DNA of 7,644 nucleotides, taken from the sequence record AY753669.1. The stretch is one strand, 5' to 3'. Both the position numbers and the translations under genes were made by a program. Below, piece after piece: positions 1 through 7,644 of the stretch (positions are counted from its first letter, which is position 1; each line of letters opens with the position of its first letter). The DNA comes from Escherichia phage D6. The notes under the pieces were generated by a model. It was not told the DNA's origin. It ran no database searches and saw nothing but the letters and a program-made list of their open reading frames with translations.

Positions 1-5
1 TAGTA

Positions 6-263
6 ATGACCACCAGGGGGATGAGGGTTAGATTTCGCTGGAAAGCAGAGCAAGTAACGCCATTCAGAGAGCCATCAATGCCGCTGCAGGTTGAGCAGGA
101 TTATCTATGTTTACCAGAAATAGATGGAGGAATGCTGGTGGAGTCTGATGGTAGTAAGGCTGATTTTGAAGCCAATTTGAAGCTGGCACAGGCCGTAATC
201 AATAGTTATCGCGGAAAGTGGATCGCAAAAGTGAAACATGTTGTTCGTTTGTCTCGCTGGTAG
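6..263 (+). CDS. hypothetical protein, probably the 3' end of a gene that starts upstream of the window
   Basis: 85-codon ORF in the supplied track; the frame stays open to the window edge (no in-frame stop upstream of the ATG at 6), so the true start may lie outside. No motif recognised. Confidence 0.35.
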   Translation: MTTRGMRVRFRWKAEQVTPFREPSMPLQVEQDYLCLPEIDGGMLVESDGSKADFEANLKLAQAVINSYRGKWIAKVKHVVRLSRW

Positions 264-279
264 CATTAGGTATTTAATA

Positions 280-295
280 TTAATTTTCTAATACA
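280..295 (+). promoter_or_regulatory. copy 1 of a recurring 16-bp AT-rich motif (TTAATTTTCTAATACA); candidate repressor operator upstream of the 130-aa ORF
   Basis: Seen in sequence: 14/16 identical to the copy at 6123..6138 and 13/16 to the copy at 4713..4728, all in the same orientation and all in intergenic DNA just outside gene ends. Operator function is inference. Confidence 0.4.
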
Positions 296-371
296 ATCAT
301 CTTTTTACCAGTCTATACAGTTTTAACATTCTCATTATCATCCCCTCGGTCATTTCCTGCCCGGGGGATTA

Positions 372-764
372 ATGGAACAAATCAGCAGCGCAGAAATTGC
401 GGATATCATGATCAGGGCTGACTGCTATCTGACAGTCACTGAAATTACCACTCTCGCCAAAGAAAAATACCCTCATCTCCATGTTTCACGAGTAAGTGTA
501 ACTAACATCATTCGTCATTTTGTTCGTTCAAGCAGGGCAATCTGTGAGCTGGATGATCGTGTGTATCCACGAAAATACTGGCTACATGGTCTGAACGGAT
601 ATCAGTTCAAGGTGCGCGGGCGCACGCCTGAATACGGTAGCTTACTGGTTAAAAACTGTAGCAGGAAATCAGTCGAACAGGCGCGAAAAGAGCAACGAGA
701 GCTGGTGGACATGGCGAATAAGCTGTGGAATGCCGCCGTTAAAAAGCGTGGTGTTGCTTTATGA
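372..764 (+). CDS. hypothetical small basic protein, translationally coupled to pacA; positional counterpart of the P1 late-promoter activator gene lpa (unverified)
   Basis: 130-codon ORF; GGGGGA Shine-Dalgarno-like sequence 5 nt upstream of the ATG; its TGA stop (762..764) overlaps the pacA ATG (761..763) as ATGA. The lpa suggestion rests only on my recollection of P1 gene order, not on sequence similarity. Confidence 0.6.
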   Translation: MEQISSAEIADIMIRADCYLTVTEITTLAKEKYPHLHVSRVSVTNIIRHFVRSSRAICELDDRVYPRKYWLHGLNGYQFKVRGRTPEYGSLLVKNCSRKSVEQARKEQRELVDMANKLWNAAVKKRGVAL

Positions 765-2125
765 GTCTGGTTAATTGGGAGGAGCACCGCGCCCGCTTTA
801 TAGCGTTGCGTGAAGAAAAAGGGATCACTGTAAAGGAATACTGTGAGGAGCATGGCCTTAGCTTCAATACAGCCAGAAAGCATCTCAATATGAAAAAAAA
901 TGAGGTGCGGTCGCAGGTAAAGACAACAAAAAAAAGCACCAAATCACCTGAAAAAAAACGGGCGGGAAGAGCAACAAAAAAGCTGGAAGAGGGTGCAGAA
1001 AAAACAAAATTTACAGAAATTGACAATTCGCAGGGTGCAGGTTCTTTCCGAAGTATGCCAAGAAAGAAAACTTCGGATCATGAAAGTAATACCAATAATA
1101 ACAATGAGATAAAAGAATCTGTCAGGAGATCATTGCGCGAAAAAATGGCGAAAATGATCCCCGAAGAAGATAAAAGCGCCCCAAAAATTGAGGGATCTTC
1201 AGCAATGATCCCTGGCGGTGCTGTGCAGCGTGCCACATTGCCCACTACGAATGTGGCTCGCGATATGATGAAGAACGGCGCAGAAGAACACCTGCGGTTA
1301 GCAATTCAAATGGCGCAAGAGCGCGCACTTCAGTATCAAAGCATTGTTGATCAGGAGGCCGAACGTCTACAGGCGGAAATAGACGCCTTGGGCGATAAAG
1401 AGCCAGAAGGAATGCACCCTGGGCAGCGCCTTCTCGGTCTAATCAGTGACGCGGCCTACTACATGAATGATTTTATCAGTAGGTTGGCAGCTATATATCA
1501 GTCCGAACAAAAGCTGCGACAGGGGGATGAAAAGCTTCGTCAGAGCGCTCGCCAGCAAGCATTCAAAGAGGCTGAGGCCAGAGAAAAACTCGAATTAGCA
1601 CGCCTACAGGCCGAACAGCGTGGCAAAGAGATTGAATATCGCATTGGCGCTGACGCACGCGCTGCCAGAGTTATCGCCGCCGCTATACGTATGCGTGAGC
1701 GCGAGGAACTGGATGATATCGGTGTTGCTGAATACATCGAGCGCCAGGGGGTCAGCGTCCCGGCTATCCTCGCGGCGCGCGCGGCGAAAGCTATCACTCT
1801 TCTCGAACCACCTGTTTCTGACGTCAATGATGTTGATGATGAACAGCTGGACAAAGAGGCGAGGGAGTTTGCGACGCTTCAGGCTAACCATCCGCAATGG
1901 CTGGCAGAGCGCCGGGCGGATGTGGCAACCATTGTTGAAGAATTGGGGTGCGGAGATTACGACCGCAATGGCGAGCGTAAAGCTGGAGAATTCGAGGCCA
2001 ACGACGAAGAGCTGGATATTGACCCTTCGGCAACGGCTGATATTTACGGTGATTATGATGCATCTGATGCAGGGTATGACGCCGGAGATGATGATATCGC
2101 GATAGAACCGCCGGAGGATGATTAA
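761..2125 (+). CDS. pacA: terminase small subunit / pac-site recognition protein (PacA-like)
   Basis: 454-codon ORF immediately upstream of and overlapping (TAATG) the large-terminase gene. N-terminus (MSLVNWEEHRARFIALREEKGITVKEYCEEHGLSFNTARKHL) looks like a helix-turn-helix DNA-binding domain, followed by a Lys-rich low-complexity linker and a strongly acidic C-terminal tail (..DDDIAIEPPEDD), as expected for a small terminase. Contains a GATC-hexamer cluster (see 1075..1211). The P1 pacA assignment is by synteny and domain logic. Confidence 0.7.
   Translation: MSLVNWEEHRARFIALREEKGITVKEYCEEHGLSFNTARKHLNMKKNEVRSQVKTTKKSTKSPEKKRAGRATKKLEEGAEKTKFTEIDNSQGAGSFRSMPRKKTSDHESNTNNNNEIKESVRRSLREKMAKMIPEEDKSAPKIEGSSAMIPGGAVQRATLPTTNVARDMMKNGAEEHLRLAIQMAQERALQYQSIVDQEAERLQAEIDALGDKEPEGMHPGQRLLGLISDAAYYMNDFISRLAAIYQSEQKLRQGDEKLRQSARQQAFKEAEAREKLELARLQAEQRGKEIEYRIGADARAARVIAAAIRMREREELDDIGVAEYIERQGVSVPAILAARAAKAITLLEPPVSDVNDVDDEQLDKEAREFATLQANHPQWLAERRADVATIVEELGCGDYDRNGERKAGEFEANDEELDIDPSATADIYGDYDASDAGYDAGDDDIAIEPPEDD
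1075..1211. other. candidate pac (packaging cleavage) site: cluster of five GATC-containing hexamers inside the 5' third of pacA
   Basis: Seen in sequence: GATC at 1076, 1128, 1156, 1194 and 1207, i.e. five in about 135 bp, where chance predicts well under one. Hexamers read TGATCC (1155..1160 and 1206..1211 on top; 1075..1080 on bottom), TGATCT (1127..1132 bottom) and AGATCC (1193..1198 bottom). Established knowledge: the P1 pac site lies inside pacA and consists of repeated Dam-methylatable TGATCA/G hexamers flanking the cleavage point. Assignment here is by analogy. Confidence 0.35.
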
Positions 2126-3633
2126 TGGCTGGAGGGCGCAAGATTAAATGCGTCACCAGCGATCCACGCTGGCGCGATATGGTAATCAAATACCGCTACA
2201 ACTTTACCCAAGCTGTTGTCGATATTTTTGGGATGTTCCCCTCCCACCAGCAGCAGCAGATCATTCAGTCCGTGCAGGAAACGGGGAGTAGGACGACCGT
2301 CACGTCCGGACACGGAACGGGGAAGTCGTCCCTTACCGCGATGTTGCTGTTGATTTTCATGATCCTGTTCCCCGATGCCCGTGTCATCATTGTTGCTAAC
2401 AAGATAGGCCAGGTAAAAACAGGCGTATTCAAATACGTTAAACAGTATTGGGCGAATGCAGTTAAGCGTCATGGGTGGTTGCAGACCTATTTTGTCCTCT
2501 CTGACACCATGTTTTATGAGCGCTCCCGTAAGGGGATTTGGGAAGTTCTCTGCAAAGGTTATCGACTCGGCAACGAAGAAGCGCTGGCGGGGGAACACGC
2601 GGCACATTTGCTTCTAATTCTGGATGAAGCATCTGGTATATCTGATAAGGCGATCGGCGTAATGACCGGTGCTCTTACTGAAGAAGATAACCGGATGTTG
2701 ATGCTATCCCAGCCAACAAGGCCAAGTGGTTATTTCTACGATTCGCACCATTCTCAAGCAAAAACCCCAGACAACCCGAAAGGGATCTGGACAGCAATTG
2801 TTCTTAACTCGGAAGAATCACCGTTCGTCACACCACAATTCATCAAGCAGAAGCTTCTGGAATATGGCGGGCGCGATTCTATTGAGTACATGGTCAAGGT
2901 GCTTGGTCAGTTCCCACGAGAAATTAACGGCTATTTGCTTGGTCGTGATGAATGCGATCGCGCTGCTCGCCGCAAGGTGTTGTTGGAGAAAAACTGGGGA
3001 TGGGTGGCAACGGCTGACGTTGGTAATGGGCGAGATAAGTCGGTCCTCAACATCTGCAAGGTATCAGGTCACAGGGATAAGCGGCGCGTTGTTAACTTTA
3101 AGGTAATGGAGATGTCTGGCACTATGGACCCATTGGCCTTTGCTGACTTCATATATAACGAATGTACGCCGGAAAAATACCCGAATATAACAATCGCGGT
3201 TGATGCTGATGGTTTTGGTTCTGATACGTGTGCGCAGTTGGTGCGTCGTGGTGCGAACCCGGTACGTATTCGGTGGGGAAAACCCATGTTTGCGAACAAA
3301 GACAGGGAGCGATTTGTTAATCAGCGTGCCTACGCAAATATTATGGCGCGTGATGCCATAAAGTCAGGGCGTATGCGGATAGACAGTGACCCTAAAACGG
3401 CAGAGCAAGCGTCAAAAATCCCCTTTTTACTGAATGAAGAAGGGAAAATGGCGATGATGCGCAAAGAGCACATGCGGCAAAAGCTAAACATCAAATCGCC
3501 TGACCGATGGGATACCTACTGCTTCACTATGCTGGTGGACTATGTGCCTGCTAATGAAGATATTGGTGCCGAAATGGCAACTTTCCGAGATCAGGTTCTG
3601 GCGGATATCGAAATGCCGGATCTGGATATATAA
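2125..3633 (+). CDS. pacB: terminase large subunit (PacB-like; ATPase plus nuclease)
   Basis: 502-codon ORF. Walker A-like P-loop (VTSGHGTGKSSL) and Walker B-like hydrophobic stretch ending in DE (LLLILDEASG) in the N-terminal half; acidic nuclease-type segments in the C-terminal half (IAVDADGFGSD). Start overlaps the pacA stop (TAATG). Confidence 0.85.
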   Translation: MAGGRKIKCVTSDPRWRDMVIKYRYNFTQAVVDIFGMFPSHQQQQIIQSVQETGSRTTVTSGHGTGKSSLTAMLLLIFMILFPDARVIIVANKIGQVKTGVFKYVKQYWANAVKRHGWLQTYFVLSDTMFYERSRKGIWEVLCKGYRLGNEEALAGEHAAHLLLILDEASGISDKAIGVMTGALTEEDNRMLMLSQPTRPSGYFYDSHHSQAKTPDNPKGIWTAIVLNSEESPFVTPQFIKQKLLEYGGRDSIEYMVKVLGQFPREINGYLLGRDECDRAARRKVLLEKNWGWVATADVGNGRDKSVLNICKVSGHRDKRRVVNFKVMEMSGTMDPLAFADFIYNECTPEKYPNITIAVDADGFGSDTCAQLVRRGANPVRIRWGKPMFANKDRERFVNQRAYANIMARDAIKSGRMRIDSDPKTAEQASKIPFLLNEEGKMAMMRKEHMRQKLNIKSPDRWDTYCFTMLVDYVPANEDIGAEMATFRDQVLADIEMPDLDI

Positions 3634-3634
3634 A

Positions 3635-3651
3635 GCCCCGCGATGCGGGGC
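3635..3651. terminator. hairpin between the convergent pacB and 345-aa genes; possible bidirectional intrinsic terminator
   Basis: Perfect 7-bp stem GCCCCGC / GCGGGGC with a 3-nt loop (GAT), directly after the pacB stop and directly after the stop of the - strand gene (3661). There is a T/A-rich run on the - strand side (TTATATAT) but no clean U-tract on the + side. Confidence 0.45.
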
Positions 3652-3660
3652 CGGTTGTGA

Positions 3661-4698
3661 TTACCAGAGCTTCGCGGCGTACTGCGTTTGGGGGAATGTG
3701 TATCCGTAACGTTCTTCGATTGCTTTGCCGTATTTTTTACGAGCTTCATTCAGTTTAATGCCGGTCAGGTCGTCTCCAGAGGCCATCATTACGTCTAACA
3801 ATTCCAGATCCATTTTATCCAGCCTTGCCATTGCTTCACGTGATGTACGTATCTTACGCTCAATGATATGGCGAATAGCCGGATCGGCATCCTCCAGCAT
3901 CTTAGCGGATTTCTGCTTAAGGCTTTCATTGCGAATATCGATGTTCCTTAAGATGTACGACTTCGCAACGTAGCTTGGCTGGTGTTTTTCCAGGTCACGA
4001 ACACGATATAAGTTAAAATCGCCGAGAAGGCTGCAAGGTACCGATTCGACGCCAGAATAAATTGTAATGCTCCGGCGTTCACCAACATTATTGACAACGG
4101 GGATCGTTGTCTTCGGTAGTCTTGCGAAAACCAATGCGCCATGTGCGCCAACTCTAAAGCGAGAAAGGGCATTGCTGCCTTCGATGTTTGTTGTCAGCAC
4201 AACATCTGTATATGCCTCTTTACGCGCCCGGTAGATCTCGCCTTCAGGCTCAGCTTCAAAGAAGCGCTGTTCTTCTTCAAGAGCACCTACGATTTGAGAA
4301 AAAACCCTATTTTTCAGGCTTTTCTTTATGATTTTGTCGTATTTTTTTAGCAATTGTTCACGTGTAAATGTACGTGTTGTTGTAGCGCTTTGCACAACGA
4401 CATGCGTGCTTTGATTGGTGTCCTCAATGATGAATGGGATCGGAGAATATACAGACTCAACAATGTTCGACGCTTTGCCGTCGGCATCGCGGCACATGTC
4501 AACGAAGGCTTTCCATTCAGCAAGACATTTTTCAGCTTCTTCTAATATGTTTTGGTCATGCGTTAATGCAACATGGCGGAATTCCTCGCCAGCATAACTG
4601 GTATCATGGAAAACAGAGTTTGCGACCACCAGCTCTTTCCACCGTTCAGCGGTTTGCAGGAACCGTTTGTACTCTTTCTCGATCGACTTCTTACTCAT
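3661..4698 (-). CDS. c1: 345-aa protein at the immC position; putative C1-type immunity repressor by synteny (function unverified)
   Basis: Long - strand ORF convergent with pacB and divergent from the recombinase; AGGA Shine-Dalgarno-like sequence a few nt upstream of the ATG. In P1 the gene between pacB and loxP-cre is c1. I see no motif that proves repressor function, so CDS existence is about 0.85 and the C1 identity about 0.4. Confidence 0.55.
   Translation of the reverse strand: MSKKSIEKEYKRFLQTAERWKELVVANSVFHDTSYAGEEFRHVALTHDQNILEEAEKCLAEWKAFVDMCRDADGKASNIVESVYSPIPFIIEDTNQSTHVVVQSATTTRTFTREQLLKKYDKIIKKSLKNRVFSQIVGALEEEQRFFEAEPEGEIYRARKEAYTDVVLTTNIEGSNALSRFRVGAHGALVFARLPKTTIPVVNNVGERRSITIYSGVESVPCSLLGDFNLYRVRDLEKHQPSYVAKSYILRNIDIRNESLKQKSAKMLEDADPAIRHIIERKIRTSREAMARLDKMDLELLDVMMASGDDLTGIKLNEARKKYGKAIEERYGYTFPQTQYAAKLW
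3807..3885. repeat. 79-bp GATC-bounded segment inside the 345-aa gene that recurs in inverted orientation at 7309..7387 and 7566..7644
   Basis: Seen in sequence: the reverse complement of 3807..3885 is identical, base for base, to 7309..7387. It begins and ends with GATC. Confidence 0.9.
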
Positions 4699-4712
4699 TA
4701 TTCCTACTCGAT

Positions 4713-4728
4713 TTAGTTTTCTAACATA
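4713..4728 (+). promoter_or_regulatory. copy 2 of the 16-bp motif (TTAGTTTTCTAACATA); candidate operator in the leader of the 345-aa gene
   Basis: 13/16 identical to the copies at 280..295 and 6123..6138; lies 15 to 30 bp upstream of the - strand gene start. Confidence 0.4.
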
Positions 4729-4797
4729 AAATTACTATGACAAATTTATGTCGAATAACAGAGTGAGTAAAGGATCGAACTGTGATTTTTTGTCATC

Positions 4798-4813
4798 AAT
4801 TTTAGAAAACCAA
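4798..4813 (-). promoter_or_regulatory. copy 3 of the 16-bp motif, weaker and inverted (reads TTGGTTTTCTAAAATT on the - strand)
   Basis: Shares the TTTTCTAA core; 13/16 to the degenerate consensus TTA[AG][TA]TTTCTAA[CT]A[CT]A; about 70 bp from copy 2 in the same intergenic region. Confidence 0.3.
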
Positions 4814-4908
4814 CCGTAGAAACCACACTTCGCTAATTAAAGACCATGAAGGCAACGTGTTACTGGTCATCATCAATCTATGATGGATTAAAAAAAATCG
4901 GCATTTTA

Positions 4909-4940
4909 TAACTTTAAATAATTGGCATTATTTAAAGTTA
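4909..4940. other. rox: rox site: 32-bp recombination target of Dre (14-bp perfect inverted arms around a 4-bp asymmetric spacer)
   Basis: Seen in sequence: TAACTTTAAATAAT-TGGC-ATTATTTAAAGTTA. This is the exact reverse complement of the rox site as I recall it (TAACTTTAAATAATGCCAATTATTTAAAGTTA). Including the flanking A at 4908, one arm matches the loxP arm ATAACTTCGTATA at 10/13 positions. It lies about 150 bp upstream of the recombinase gene. Confidence 0.85.
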
Positions 4941-4949
4941 GGCTATAAT
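4922..4949 (+). promoter_or_regulatory. candidate sigma70 promoter reading toward the recombinase gene, overlapping rox
   Basis: -35 TTGGCA (4922..4927, spanning the rox spacer), 16-bp spacer, perfect -10 TATAAT (4944..4949). Established knowledge: P1 cre has multiple promoters in the loxP-proximal region. Activity is not demonstrated. Confidence 0.4.
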
Positions 4950-5092
4950 CATGTGTAGATGAACAGTATTGACATCACTGAAAATACGTACCTCCAATCA
5001 AAGGCTTGTATTTTGAAAATTAACTTATAGCTACCCTGTCATTTTTATATTTTTCGCGTAGCGTCATCTGTATATAGAGGTGAAATGGTTTC

Positions 5093-6121
5093 ATGAGTGA
5101 ATTAATTATCTCTGGCAGTTCCGGTGGTTTTCTGCGCAACATTGGCAAAGAGTACCAGGAAGCCGCAGAAAACTTTATGCGGTTCATGAATGATCAGGGT
5201 GCTTATGCGCCGAATACTCTGCGCGACCTCCGGTTGGTGTTTCATTCCTGGGCGCGCTGGTGTCACGCTCGCCAGCTTGCCTGGTTTCCGATCTCACCAG
5301 AAATGGCCCGCGAGTATTTTCTTCAGTTGCATGATGCCGATCTGGCTTCGACCACCATTGATAAGCACTACGCCATGCTTAACATGCTGCTTTCTCATTG
5401 TGGCCTTCCGCCACTTTCGGATGATAAAAGTGTTTCTCTGGCTATGCGGCGTATCCGGCGCGAAGCGGCAACGGAAAAAGGCGAACGAACAGGCCAGGCT
5501 ATACCGCTGCGATGGGACGACCTGAAACTGCTCGACGTCCTGTTGTCCAGGTCAGAACGGCTGGTGGACCTGCGCAACCGGGCTTTTCTCTTTGTTGCAT
5601 ACAATACGCTGATGCGTATGTCGGAAATCTCGCGTATTCGTGTAGGAGATCTGGACCAAACAGGTGACACTGTCACGCTACATATTTCACACACGAAGAC
5701 AATAACGACCGCCGCCGGGCTTGATAAGGTGCTTTCCCGTCGCACTACTGCTGTGCTGAATGACTGGCTGGATGTTTCCGGGCTTCGTGAACATCCTGAC
5801 GCGGTGCTGTTCCCGCCGATACACCGTAGCAATAAGGCCAGGATTACGACAACGCCCCTTACTGCACCTGCAATGGAGAAAATATTCAGCGACGCCTGGG
5901 TGTTGCTGAATAAAAGGGATGCCACGCCAAACAAAGGGAGATACCGGACGTGGACCGGGCATAGTGCTCGTGTCGGGGCCGCTATCGATATGGCTGAAAA
6001 GCAGGTGTCTATGGTGGAGATTATGCAGGAAGGAACCTGGAAGAAACCGGAAACACTTATGCGGTATCTGCGCCGTGGCGGTGTGTCTGTGGGGGCTAAT
6101 AGCCGCTTGATGGATTCATAA
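5093..6121 (+). CDS. dre: Dre, a Cre-family tyrosine site-specific recombinase (rox-specific)
   Basis: 342-codon ORF, GAGGTG Shine-Dalgarno-like sequence about 9 nt upstream. Clear Cre-like sequence throughout (e.g. SVSLAMRRIRRE, RNRAFLFVAYNTLMRMSEISRIRVGDL, TGHSARVGAAIDMA, EIMQEGTWKKPETLMRYLRR), with the Cre catalytic Arg, His-x-x-Arg, Trp and Tyr positions conserved. The N-terminus MSELIISGSS and the adjacent exact rox site identify it as Dre rather than Cre. Confidence 0.9.
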   Translation: MSELIISGSSGGFLRNIGKEYQEAAENFMRFMNDQGAYAPNTLRDLRLVFHSWARWCHARQLAWFPISPEMAREYFLQLHDADLASTTIDKHYAMLNMLLSHCGLPPLSDDKSVSLAMRRIRREAATEKGERTGQAIPLRWDDLKLLDVLLSRSERLVDLRNRAFLFVAYNTLMRMSEISRIRVGDLDQTGDTVTLHISHTKTITTAAGLDKVLSRRTTAVLNDWLDVSGLREHPDAVLFPPIHRSNKARITTTPLTAPAMEKIFSDAWVLLNKRDATPNKGRYRTWTGHSARVGAAIDMAEKQVSMVEIMQEGTWKKPETLMRYLRRGGVSVGANSRLMDS

Positions 6122-6122
6122 A

Positions 6123-6138
6123 TTAAATTTCTAACACA
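6123..6138 (+). promoter_or_regulatory. copy 4 of the 16-bp motif (TTAAATTTCTAACACA); candidate operator between dre and the downstream operon
   Basis: Begins 2 bp after the dre stop codon, about 55 bp upstream of the next ORF; 14/16 identical to copy 1. Confidence 0.4.
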
Positions 6139-6194
6139 TCTTTTTAGATTGATATCTTTGCTGTAAAGTACCCTCGCCTATTTTGGAGGGTGCT

Positions 6195-6539
6195 TTGCAG
6201 AGTCAAATCACGGAATCAAGACGCTTCACGGTGGATGGTTACACCGTAACCTTCGCCGCTGGTGTTAAGAACAGTCATGCTGTCGTTGTATTCGGCATCA
6301 TGACCGGGCTTGAGGCCGTCCCTGTGTTTACCCTCGAAAAAAACTGGCGAAATCTGGAGGAAGCAGAAAGCTACGTCCGGAAAGTAACCATCATTGCCGC
6401 CGAAAAACTCCTGGCCCACTATCAGGAAAATTATCGCACTATGGTCGAGAAGATTAATCTCGCTTTCACTCGCCCCACTACCGGCTTTATTGCACCGGAT
6501 ACTAATGCAGGTCGATATCCGGCAAGGGGGCGTCGGTGA
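6195..6539 (+). CDS. hypothetical protein (about 114 to 118 aa), first gene of a small operon downstream of dre
   Basis: ORF in the track from 6183. There is no in-frame ATG near the 5' end; the TTG at 6195 is preceded by GGAGGG (6185..6190) at good spacing, so I place the start there (alternatives: TTG 6183, GTG 6231). Its stop overlaps the GTG start of the next ORF (GTGA at 6536..6539). No recognisable motif. Confidence 0.5.
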   Translation: MQSQITESRRFTVDGYTVTFAAGVKNSHAVVVFGIMTGLEAVPVFTLEKNWRNLEEAESYVRKVTIIAAEKLLAHYQENYRTMVEKINLAFTRPTTGFIAPDTNAGRYPARGRR

Positions 6540-7012
6540 AAACTTATTACCCATCTCTGAATTGTTACCCGTCTTCCTATCCAGGATTGTCCGGGAAGCT
6601 GTTAGCTCTATTAGCTAAAGCACCTACGGAATGGTTTAAGCCAGTCGTTATCAATCCACACTTCCTGGATTACGGATCTGTTCGCACTCGTAACGAACTC
6701 AAAAACCTACTGGCGCATGGATTCATTCGACACCGTGCCGGTAAAGGCTATCAGTTATCGATTGCGCCAGAAGAGGCCGTGCGGCTATTCGCATATCGTG
6801 ACAGCCAGACAAAAGCTCGGGTAATAGCTCAAATACTTCATAACGGCAGCACCTATGCCCGCCAGTTTGGCGGCGACACGTCGCAGTTCTTGCGGGCGGT
6901 GCGATCGCTGGAGGAGCAAGGAGTTATTGAAAGTTCCTGTCTTCCTGTTCCAACCGTTCCACATATCAAACGTCGGGTTTACACCTTCACGCAGAGAGCT
7001 AAAAAACAATGA
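6536..7012 (+). CDS. hypothetical protein (158 aa), GTG start, translationally coupled both upstream and downstream
   Basis: ORF in the track; GTGA overlap with the previous ORF and ATGA overlap (7009..7012) with the dUTPase-like gene. Composition is protein-like; no motif recognised with confidence. Confidence 0.55.
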   Translation: MKTYYPSLNCYPSSYPGLSGKLLALLAKAPTEWFKPVVINPHFLDYGSVRTRNELKNLLAHGFIRHRAGKGYQLSIAPEEAVRLFAYRDSQTKARVIAQILHNGSTYARQFGGDTSQFLRAVRSLEEQGVIESSCLPVPTVPHIKRRVYTFTQRAKKQ

Positions 7013-7455
7013 TTTACGTAAAAGTGAAACGCCTACATCCGGCAGCAAAACTTCCAGCTTATGCCACCTCCGGATCGGCGGCGATGGATTTTGAGGCTGT
7101 TGAAATAAAACCATGTGTCGATAGCAATGGTGCAATTTCCTCAAGCTGGTGGGTGTACACCGGATTGGCTATGGAGATCCCGCCCGGCTGGTGTCTGAAA
7201 CTCTATCCGCGATCCGGATTGGGCTGCAAAAAACATACTCGCCTGGCTAACTGCGTAGGAATTATCGACTCCGATTATCGCGGCGAAATCATGGCAAAAC
7301 TGATTACTGATCCGGCTATTCGCCATATCATTGAGCGTAAGATACGTACATCACGTGAAGCAATGGCAAGGCTGGATAAAATGGATCTGCAATTTCCTCA
7401 AGCTGGTGGGTGTACACCGGATTGGCTATGGAGATCCCGCCCGGCTGGTGTCTGA
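7009..7455 (+). CDS. dut: dUTPase-family gene (trimeric dUTPase motifs I-III) whose 3' part is replaced or disrupted after codon 100
   Basis: N-terminal 100 aa carry dUTPase hallmarks: ..LPAYATSGSAAMDF.. (motif I region), YPRSGLG (motif II), GIIDSDYRGE (motif III). Motifs IV and V are absent. From 7309 the reading frame runs into the inverted 79-bp copy of the 345-aa gene fragment (reading DPAIRHIIERKIRTSREAMARLDKMDL) and then into an out-of-frame second copy of dut sequence, ending at 7455. The 148-aa ORF as drawn is therefore chimeric; it may be a pseudogene or an artefact. Confidence 0.55.
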   Translation: MIYVKVKRLHPAAKLPAYATSGSAAMDFEAVEIKPCVDSNGAISSSWWVYTGLAMEIPPGWCLKLYPRSGLGCKKHTRLANCVGIIDSDYRGEIMAKLITDPAIRHIIERKIRTSREAMARLDKMDLQFPQAGGCTPDWLWRSRPAGV

Positions 7456-7644
7456 AACTCTATCCGCGATCCGGATTGGGCTGCAAAAAACATACTCGCC
7501 TGGCTAACTGCGTAGGAATTATCGACTCCGATTATCGCGGCGAAATCATGGCAAAACTGATTACTGATCCGGCTATTCGCCATATCATTGAGCGTAAGAT
7601 ACGTACATCACGTGAAGCAATGGCAAGGCTGGATAAAATGGATC
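7131..7644. repeat. perfect tandem direct duplication, 2 x 257 bp (7131..7387 and 7388..7644), ending exactly at the window edge
   Basis: Seen in sequence: the two copies are identical base for base. Each copy is 178 bp of dut coding sequence plus the 79-bp inverted fragment of the 345-aa gene. The identical antisense 61-aa ORFs at 7141..7326 and 7398..7583 in the track are a by-product. Confidence 0.9.
7309..7387. repeat. inverted copy of 3807..3885 (79 bp, GATC-bounded); a second identical copy lies at 7566..7644
   Basis: Exact reverse-complement identity to 3807..3885, verified by hand. Confidence 0.9.

Follow-up and report, generated by a model that had tools for sequence, protein, structure and literature searches.

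Results

Gene content of the window

The window, by which we mean the whole stretch of 7,644 nt that was analyzed, contains a 32-bp inverted repeat (4909..4940) and, 152 nt beyond it, the ATG of an open reading frame on the + strand (5093..6121, stop codon included) whose product is a Cre-like tyrosine recombinase of 342 aa. Positions 1..7313 are 100% identical to, and colinear with, the genome of Escherichia phage D6 across the origin of record MF356679.1, and no difference between the two occurs within 4909..6121; only the last 331 bases of the window depart from the phage genome. When 4800..6200 and the whole window were searched by megablast against 50,697 phage records, Escherichia phage D6 was the only match (MF356679.1, NC_050154.1; 100%), and the nucleotide comparison with this phage that the first-pass annotation had proposed thus came out as it had anticipated. 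The D6 records carry no classification below Caudoviricetes. Since the window is D6 sequence, the neighboring genes lpa, pacA, pacB, c1 and dut become interpretable as well.

The order of genes and features is that of the D6 genome, namely lpa, pacA, pacB, c1, rox, dre, orf117, orf116, dut. The late activator gene lpa (372-764, +; D6_4 in the phage annotation; Pfam BPP1_LPA, E 5e-57) is followed by the genes for the packaging (terminase) subunits, pacA (761-2125, +; D6_3) and pacB (2125-3633, +; D6_2), whose products fall into PHROG terminase families. The left neighbor of the inverted repeat lies on the opposite strand (3661..4698, -) and is the c1 analogue of D6; the prophage repressor of 345 aa that it encodes is annotated as D6_1, 'prophage repressor, similar to P1 gene C1', and gives a weak full-length match to the NCBIfam model phage_rep_C1 (E 9e-6) that falls far short of the cut-off of the model. 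To the right of dre, orf117 (6195-6539, +), orf116 (6536-7012, +) and the first 305 nt of dut (from 7009 to 7313, +) were placed by transferring their coordinates from MF356679.1.

The target site

On the + strand, the letters of 4909..4940 read TAACTTTAAATAATTGGCATTATTTAAAGTTA, which can be parsed as TAACTTTAAATAAT-TGGC-ATTATTTAAAGTTA. A repeat finder resolved this element into arms of 14 nt each (left, 4909-4922; right, 4927-4940) that are 100% complementary and stand 4 nt apart, the 4 bp between them (TGGC, 4923-4926) forming an asymmetric core. With the spacer left free, the window has a single occurrence of the arm pattern, even at 3 mismatches, and none of 200 dinucleotide-preserving shuffles has any. 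The reverse complement, TAACTTTAAATAATGCCAATTATTTAAAGTTA, is the other orientation in which rox is commonly printed.

The published site is the same. In PMC3082901, rox is given as (A)TAACTTTAAATAAT TGGC ATTATTTAAAGTTA(G), the bracketed letters being the boundary bases native to D6, and positions 4908..4941 of the + strand of the window agree with this letter for letter, the flanking A and G included; PMC4777119 prints the site in the opposite orientation, with ATGCCAAT as its spacer/central region. The first-pass annotation had recognized the 32-bp element as the reverse complement of rox, and both sources bear this out: the published sequence does not differ from the one it had named, and the coordinates assigned to the element and to the 342-aa reading frame proved exact. 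The architecture agrees likewise: PMC4777119 describes arms of 14 bp on either side of an asymmetric 4-bp spacer, and PMC12331466 gives 14-4-14; according to PMC4777119, the cleavage positions within rox lack experimental mapping.

In MF356679.1, rox half-sites are annotated at both ends, the record being linearized mid-rox, and the circular D6 genome (91,159 bp) contains a single full site and no further half-sites. The site lies upstream of, and adjacent to, its gene, and no T-run follows it. When a degenerate rox pattern was searched against one genome per species, the sole match fell in a Clostridia MAG; we rejected this match as a coincidence, as it consists of a perfect AT-rich palindrome with a T-run, is flanked by convergent housekeeping genes and has no recombinase nearby.

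The recombinase

The product of dre is 100% identical over 342 aa to D6_118 / ASR76376.1 (tblastn; MF356679.1, NC_050154.1), which the annotation of MF356679.1 lists as a tyrosine recombinase 'similar to P1 gene cre'. Against P1 Cre, translated from NC_005856.1, identity is 40.5% in a global alignment and 40.5-41.3% across comparisons, and PMC4777119 states the Dre-Cre homology as 40%. All seven active-site residues of Cre (R173, E176, K201, H289, R292, W315 and Y324) are kept in the global alignment, where they correspond to R175, E178, K202, H290, R293, W316 and Y325, and the positions R175, H290, R293, W316 and Y325 are the very ones listed for Dre in PMC4777119. The earlier description of a 342-aa protein that is Cre-like, with every catalytic position conserved, is upheld by these figures. 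The residues that characterize specificity of the Dre type, R44, P259 and K263 (Cre positions 43, 259 and 263), are present in the same alignment. As reported in PMC4957104, the corresponding K43, R259 and G263 of Cre face the three arm bases at which rox departs from loxP, and replacement of these residues by the R, P and K of Dre and of the recombinase Panto makes Cre act on rox.

With regard to domain structure, Cre crystal-structure sequences are matched over residues 22-341 versus 21-340 (phmmer, E 5e-69), that is, colinearly over the full length, and the solved structures that matched the dre product comprised only Cre and Tre variants, no Dre structure being among them. Pfam PF00589 covers residues 157-327 (E 5e-17), and the N-terminal SAM-like domain PF02899 scores just under the Pfam cut-off (21.6 vs 22.3 bits); the two-domain architecture of Cre is thus found through the phmmer colinearity with Cre together with PF00589, PF02899 being slightly sub-threshold. 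Generic libraries name the protein only 'integrase' or 'tyrosine recombinase', and a full-text literature search with the Dre N-terminal peptide returned no match. For the identity with Dre, we rely on the complete genome record of D6 and on what later papers quote of the residue numbering and the site sequences.

Comparison with P1 and with Panto/pox

A comparison of annotations reveals that P1 has the same order as D6, with lpa, pacA, pacB, c1 (on the opposite strand), lox and cre, so that P1 Cre/loxP occupies the same genomic slot as Dre/rox; the recombinases share family and fold, and their active-site residues are identical. Protein identity between D6 and P1 amounts to 31% for Lpa, 21% for PacA, 56% for PacB and 21% for C1, and judged by sequence D6 is a distant relative of P1 only, outside the close kinship of the genus Punavirus. 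Moreover, P1 has coi, imcB and imcA between c1 and lox, and cra between lox and cre, whereas D6 is without all four: tblastn of the P1 proteins detected no counterpart of coi, imcB, imcA or cra in the window, and neither the c1-rox gap (210 nt) nor the rox-dre gap (152 nt) has an open reading frame of at least 30 aa wholly inside it. Because coi, imcA/B and cra lack counterparts, the 'immC' of D6 is just c1 and operators. The initial proposal that the window is the pac-immC-recombinase region of a D6-like, P1-related phage consequently needs to be amended in part. It stands as far as the gene order is concerned, but the phage is D6 itself (100%, 1..7313), its immC is reduced to c1 plus operators and its kinship with P1 is distant. 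P1-type pac hexamers (TGATCA/G) do not cluster in D6 pacA.

Aligned centre to centre, the sites of the two phages have 21/34 positions identical, with TAACTT...ATA/TAT...AAGTTA in the arms of both loxP and rox; the mismatches lie in a 3-base block of each arm and in the core. They differ in their layout, which is 14-4-14 in rox and 13-8-13 in P1 loxP, and in the three arm bases by which rox is unlike loxP, for which Dre has R44, P259 and K263 and Cre has K43, R259 and G263. In E. coli, Dre recombines rox efficiently and displays no cross-reactivity with loxP, VloxP or SloxP (PMC3082901). Panto, the Cre-like recombinase of Pantoea sp. aB, is reported to be 52% identical to Dre; the arms of its site, pox, are one base off those of rox, and either enzyme recombines rox as well as pox (PMC4957104). 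Panto/pox is reported to differ from Dre/rox in its host, in its spacer and in its relaxed specificity.

Identification of the module

We consider it practically certain that 4909..6121 holds the module by which Escherichia phage D6 carries out site-specific recombination, Dre/rox, which corresponds in function to P1 Cre/loxP. All that was compared agrees with that phage: the site and its flanking bases, the protein of 342 aa, the residues for catalysis and for specificity, the slot that c1 and orf117 enclose, and the 7.3 kb around it. The Dre/rox system of Escherichia (Enterobacteria) phage D6, deposited as GenBank AY753669, with MF356679.1 as the genome, reportedly received its primary description from Sauer and McDermott in 2004. 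Characterized since that year, Dre/rox is routinely combined with Cre/loxP as an orthogonal system when the genomes of mice, cell lines, yeast and bacteria are engineered. The module found here is therefore already known and ordinary, and does not constitute a new system, in agreement with the first-pass annotation, which had called it known rather than new: the protein is 100% identical to D6_118 and the site is identical to published rox. The result is chiefly a negative one, in the sense that this region is not to be taken for an undescribed recombination or defense system.

Alternative readings and the right end of the window

It might be argued that the recombinase is not the Dre of D6 but a Dre-like variant from a D6-like plasmid prophage of E. 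coli, Salmonella or Shigella, and that its site specificity may be altered. Relatives of this kind do exist, with protein identities of 93.9%, 90.1% and 89.5% and with rox variants in which 1-4 bases are substituted, one of them, in a Shigella dysenteriae plasmid, having TAGT as its core; however, over 7313 bases the identity of the window to the D6 genome is 100%, protein and site match exactly, and the best plasmid match over window positions 4700..6200 reaches 99.8%, which is below 100%. No other Cre-family recombinase aligns better with the protein. We regard this reading as refuted and assign it a very low probability. Lower still is the likelihood that the protein is an integrase inserting its element at a chromosomal attachment site, the palindrome being an incidental terminator or regulatory hairpin. 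The library labels are compatible with such an enzyme, and the near-identical AT-rich palindrome of the Clostridia genome is indeed a plain terminator-like hairpin; yet the site in the window is a symmetric 14-4-14 target of the Cre type at the position of P1 lox, has no T-run after it and stands at a fixed distance of 152 nt from the ATG even in diverged relatives. Furthermore, rox has been recombined experimentally by Dre (PMC3082901, PMC4957104), and D6-like elements are plasmid-only in the 102 complete E. coli genomes that have them.

A different kind of alternative concerns the record as a whole, which we think is likely to be a cloned or assembled D6 fragment with a chimeric right end, in which the Dre/rox part is genuine and the tail (7314..7644) is an artefact of the source record. 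The tail, which lies outside the Dre/rox module and to which no strand applies, leaves the D6 sequence: 7309-7389 is the reverse complement of positions 3805-3885 in c1, and 7388-7644 (257 nt) is an exact second copy of 7131-7387, with the result that dut is truncated and a chimeric ORF of 148 aa is created. The first junction falls in a shared GATCC. The insert, which is inverted and joined to dut at a GATC, corresponds exactly to one piece of c1 running from GATC to GATC (3807-3885), and both the first repeat unit and the end of the window finish on GGATC; such a pattern is the mark that co-ligation of fragments leaves in cloning. Neither junction occurs in 5,426 E. coli genomes, in IMG/VR or in the JGI metagenomes, and a search of public contigs did not find the chimeric ORF. 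Against this account stands the second junction (7387/7389), which is not at a native GATC site; simple co-ligation fits the first junction and the terminus but not the exact duplication of 257 nt. In either case the chimeric tail leaves the Dre/rox identification unaffected, and because the last 331 bases are non-native, ORFs in the tail support no inference.

Proposed mechanism and role of Dre/rox in D6

By homology with Cre, one Dre monomer would bind to each 14-bp arm of rox, and two sites occupied in this manner would synapse to form a tetramer. Within it, Tyr325, aided by R175, E178, K202, H290, R293 and W316, would cleave the DNA to give a 3'-phosphotyrosyl link, and pairwise strand exchange would then proceed via a Holliday junction without the need for accessory proteins, cofactors or an energy source. 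Direction is conferred on the site by the asymmetric TGGC core, and R44, P259 and K263 read the three arm bases that separate rox from loxP, which accounts for the lack of cross-reaction between Dre and Cre.

By analogy with P1, Dre would circularize terminally redundant incoming D6 DNA at the single rox, located ~3-4 kb from the pac genes, and would also resolve dimers of the ~91-kb plasmid prophage. We infer these probable roles, cyclization and dimer resolution, from P1 and from the fact that rox in D6 is single-copy, plasmid-borne and pac-proximal. As to the basis of the overall picture, recombination at rox and heterospecificity are taken from the literature, and the identity of site and protein, the residues, the copy number, the synteny and the plasmid location were computed here.

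Candidate regulatory sequences

The natural rox variants described below, the probable C1 operator motif and the rox-overlapping promoter are of modest specialist interest. A candidate sigma-70 promoter directed toward dre (4922..4949, +) matches the consensus at 11/12 positions. Its -35 element, TTGGCA (4922-4927), sits on the rox core, its 16-nt spacer corresponds to the right rox arm, and its -10 element, TATAAT (4944-4949), lies just outside rox. It is the sole match of at least 11/12 on both strands of the window, against 0.16 expected per shuffled window. Close relatives retain the TATAAT, whereas two that have diverged show a weakened form of it. A second candidate dre promoter (4969..4998, +; 10/12 consensus match) is composed of TTGACA, 18 nt and TCCAAT; its TTGACA (4969-4974) is invariant in 6/6 aligned D6-like sequences, including those of ~79% nucleotide identity, and this second promoter could carry dre expression in the most diverged relatives. 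Reading of the sequence also points to a Shine-Dalgarno-like GAGG upstream of the dre ATG (5077..5080, +), within a block, TATAGAGGT, that is invariant in the alignment of six relatives.

In P1, the annotated cre promoters flank lox without overlapping it, whereas the candidate dre promoter of D6 overlaps rox. It is conceivable, albeit rather unlikely on our present estimate, that rox doubles as part of the dre promoter, in which case Dre bound to rox would block its own transcription and site and gene would form an autoregulatory unit, unlike what is annotated for P1 Cre/lox. A literature search, whose coverage did not extend to the primary D6 paper, produced no relevant report of rox promoter activity or of dre autoregulation.

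A further recurrent element is the 14-bp motif TTAnTTTTCTAAyA, of which the copy TTAGTTTTCTAACA (4713..4726, +) lies 15 nt upstream of the c1 start. A motif scan placed the other copies at 280-293 (+), 4800-4813 (-) and 6123-6136 (+), which makes 4 in the window vs 0.36 expected. The whole D6 genome has 14 copies vs 0.43 expected, and 13/14 are intergenic in a genome whose non-coding share is 10.5%. The sites adjoin c1, lpa, pmgS, icd/ant, ref, mat/simB and orf117, and the motif has the TCTAA core in common with the C1 operators of P1. Judging from these features, TTAnTTTTCTAAyA is probably the operator of the D6 C1 repressor. We also considered the motif as the mark of Lpa-dependent late promoters and rejected this, since the -22 boxes of P1 late promoters are unlike it and the core is shared with the P1 C1 operators.

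Distribution and natural variants

The module is widespread in nature. Clustering at 90% identity puts the exact dre product in a group of 845 members, and the protein occurs on at least 1000 contigs. In PLSDB, the module is found on 144 plasmids of Escherichia, Salmonella and Shigella, most of which are non-mobilizable and ~90 kb in size. The region adjoining dre/rox is present in 102 of 5,426 complete E. coli genomes, at 184 places, all of them on plasmids and 0 chromosomal. Dre/rox had earlier been noted in wild E. coli strains (PMC4957104).

In D6-like plasmid prophages, exemplified by the plasmid of S. dysenteriae 204/96 and by pCREC-TJ2-NDM, the recombinases have 342 aa and the same catalytic residues as Dre, to which they are 89.5-93.9% identical. 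The site is located 152 nt upstream of the ATG, the neighbors are those of D6 where the prophage is intact, and some of the sites carry 1-4 substitutions. A left rox arm reading TAACTTTAGATAAT, with core TGGC, occurs in a Salmonella Blockley plasmid and in E. coli LD93-1. The rox of a Shigella dysenteriae plasmid has four substitutions, including a TAGT core, and stands beside a Dre that is 89.5% identical. In pCREC-TJ2-NDM, an NDM plasmid, copies of IS26 enclose an exact rox and a Dre of 90% identity.

Repressor, probable operators and immunity region

The D6 genome carries 14 copies of a 14-bp motif, TTAnTTTTCTAAyA, where 0.43 would be expected by chance, and in 13 of these 14 cases the motif is intergenic, some of the copies forming inverted pairs. 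Four copies fall within the window, at 280..293 (+), 4713..4726 (+), 4800..4813 (-) and 6123..6136 (+). The motif occupies positions analogous to those of the C1 operators of phage P1 (c1, lpa, ref, mat, icd/ant and others), and probably serves the D6 repressor as its operator. The two repressors themselves are only 21% identical, P1 C1 having 283 aa and its D6 equivalent 345 aa. No D6 counterparts of P1 coi or imcA/imcB were found in the 210 nt between c1 and rox (4699..4908), nor was a counterpart of P1 cra found in the 152 nt between rox and dre (4941..5092).

Possible pac site and the right-hand tail

The pac site of P1 lies inside pacA and is regulated by Dam. GATC (Dam) sites are densest in the window at 1076..1207, 315-446 nt into pacA (five in 132 nt), and this cluster may be the pac site of D6; the P1-type TGATCA/G hexamers do not cluster in this stretch of D6 pacA.

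The final 331 bases of the window (7314..7644) differ from native D6. Here a GATC-to-GATC piece of c1 (3807-3885; matching stretch 3805..3885) is inverted and abuts dut in a common GATCC, and it is followed by an exact 257-nt repeat of preceding sequence (7131..7387), GGATC being the terminus both of the first repeat unit and of the window. Truncation of dut thereby yields a chimeric ORF of 148 aa (7009..7455). The tail junctions were found in none of 5,426 E. coli genomes, nor in IMG/VR or the JGI metagenomes, and the tail probably arose as an artefact of cloning or assembly, an explanation that leaves the second junction unaccounted for.

The rox site and its natural variants

The best match to a sigma-70 promoter in the window (4922..4949, +; 11/12 consensus positions) is directed toward dre, its candidate -35 element lying on the core of rox and its -10 element immediately beyond the site. 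Another candidate promoter, whose TTGACA is invariant, follows 47 nt further downstream (4969..4998, +). This arrangement suggests that dre could be autoregulated through Dre bound to rox; our literature search found no mention of a promoter at rox or of dre autoregulation.

Natural rox variants are carried by D6-like plasmid prophages (L006, 1504..1535; L008, 1701..1732; L009, 1701..1732). One has a substitution that destroys the symmetry of the arms (TAACTTTAGATAAT), and that of a Shigella dysenteriae plasmid has four substitutions, its core being TAGT, and an adjoining Dre of 89.5% identity; such variants and their neighboring recombinases could be natural heterospecific Dre/rox pairs. A perfect palindrome with arms identical to those of rox, TAACTTTAAATAATTAATATTATTTAAAGTTA, in an uncultured Clostridia MAG (OZ007016.1; L010, 6381..6412) was rejected as a rox site: convergent genes lie on either side, A and T runs flank it and no recombinase is found nearby. 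The palindrome is a terminator-like hairpin whose likeness to rox is one of chance in an AT-rich genome.

An exact rox with a 90% identical Dre is found in the conjugative IncX3/IncY NDM plasmid pCREC-TJ2-NDM (NZ_KX960110.1; L005, 1526..2738), where the module is separated from the remaining D6-like prophage and persists as an isolated remnant flanked by two copies of IS26, beside mph(A).
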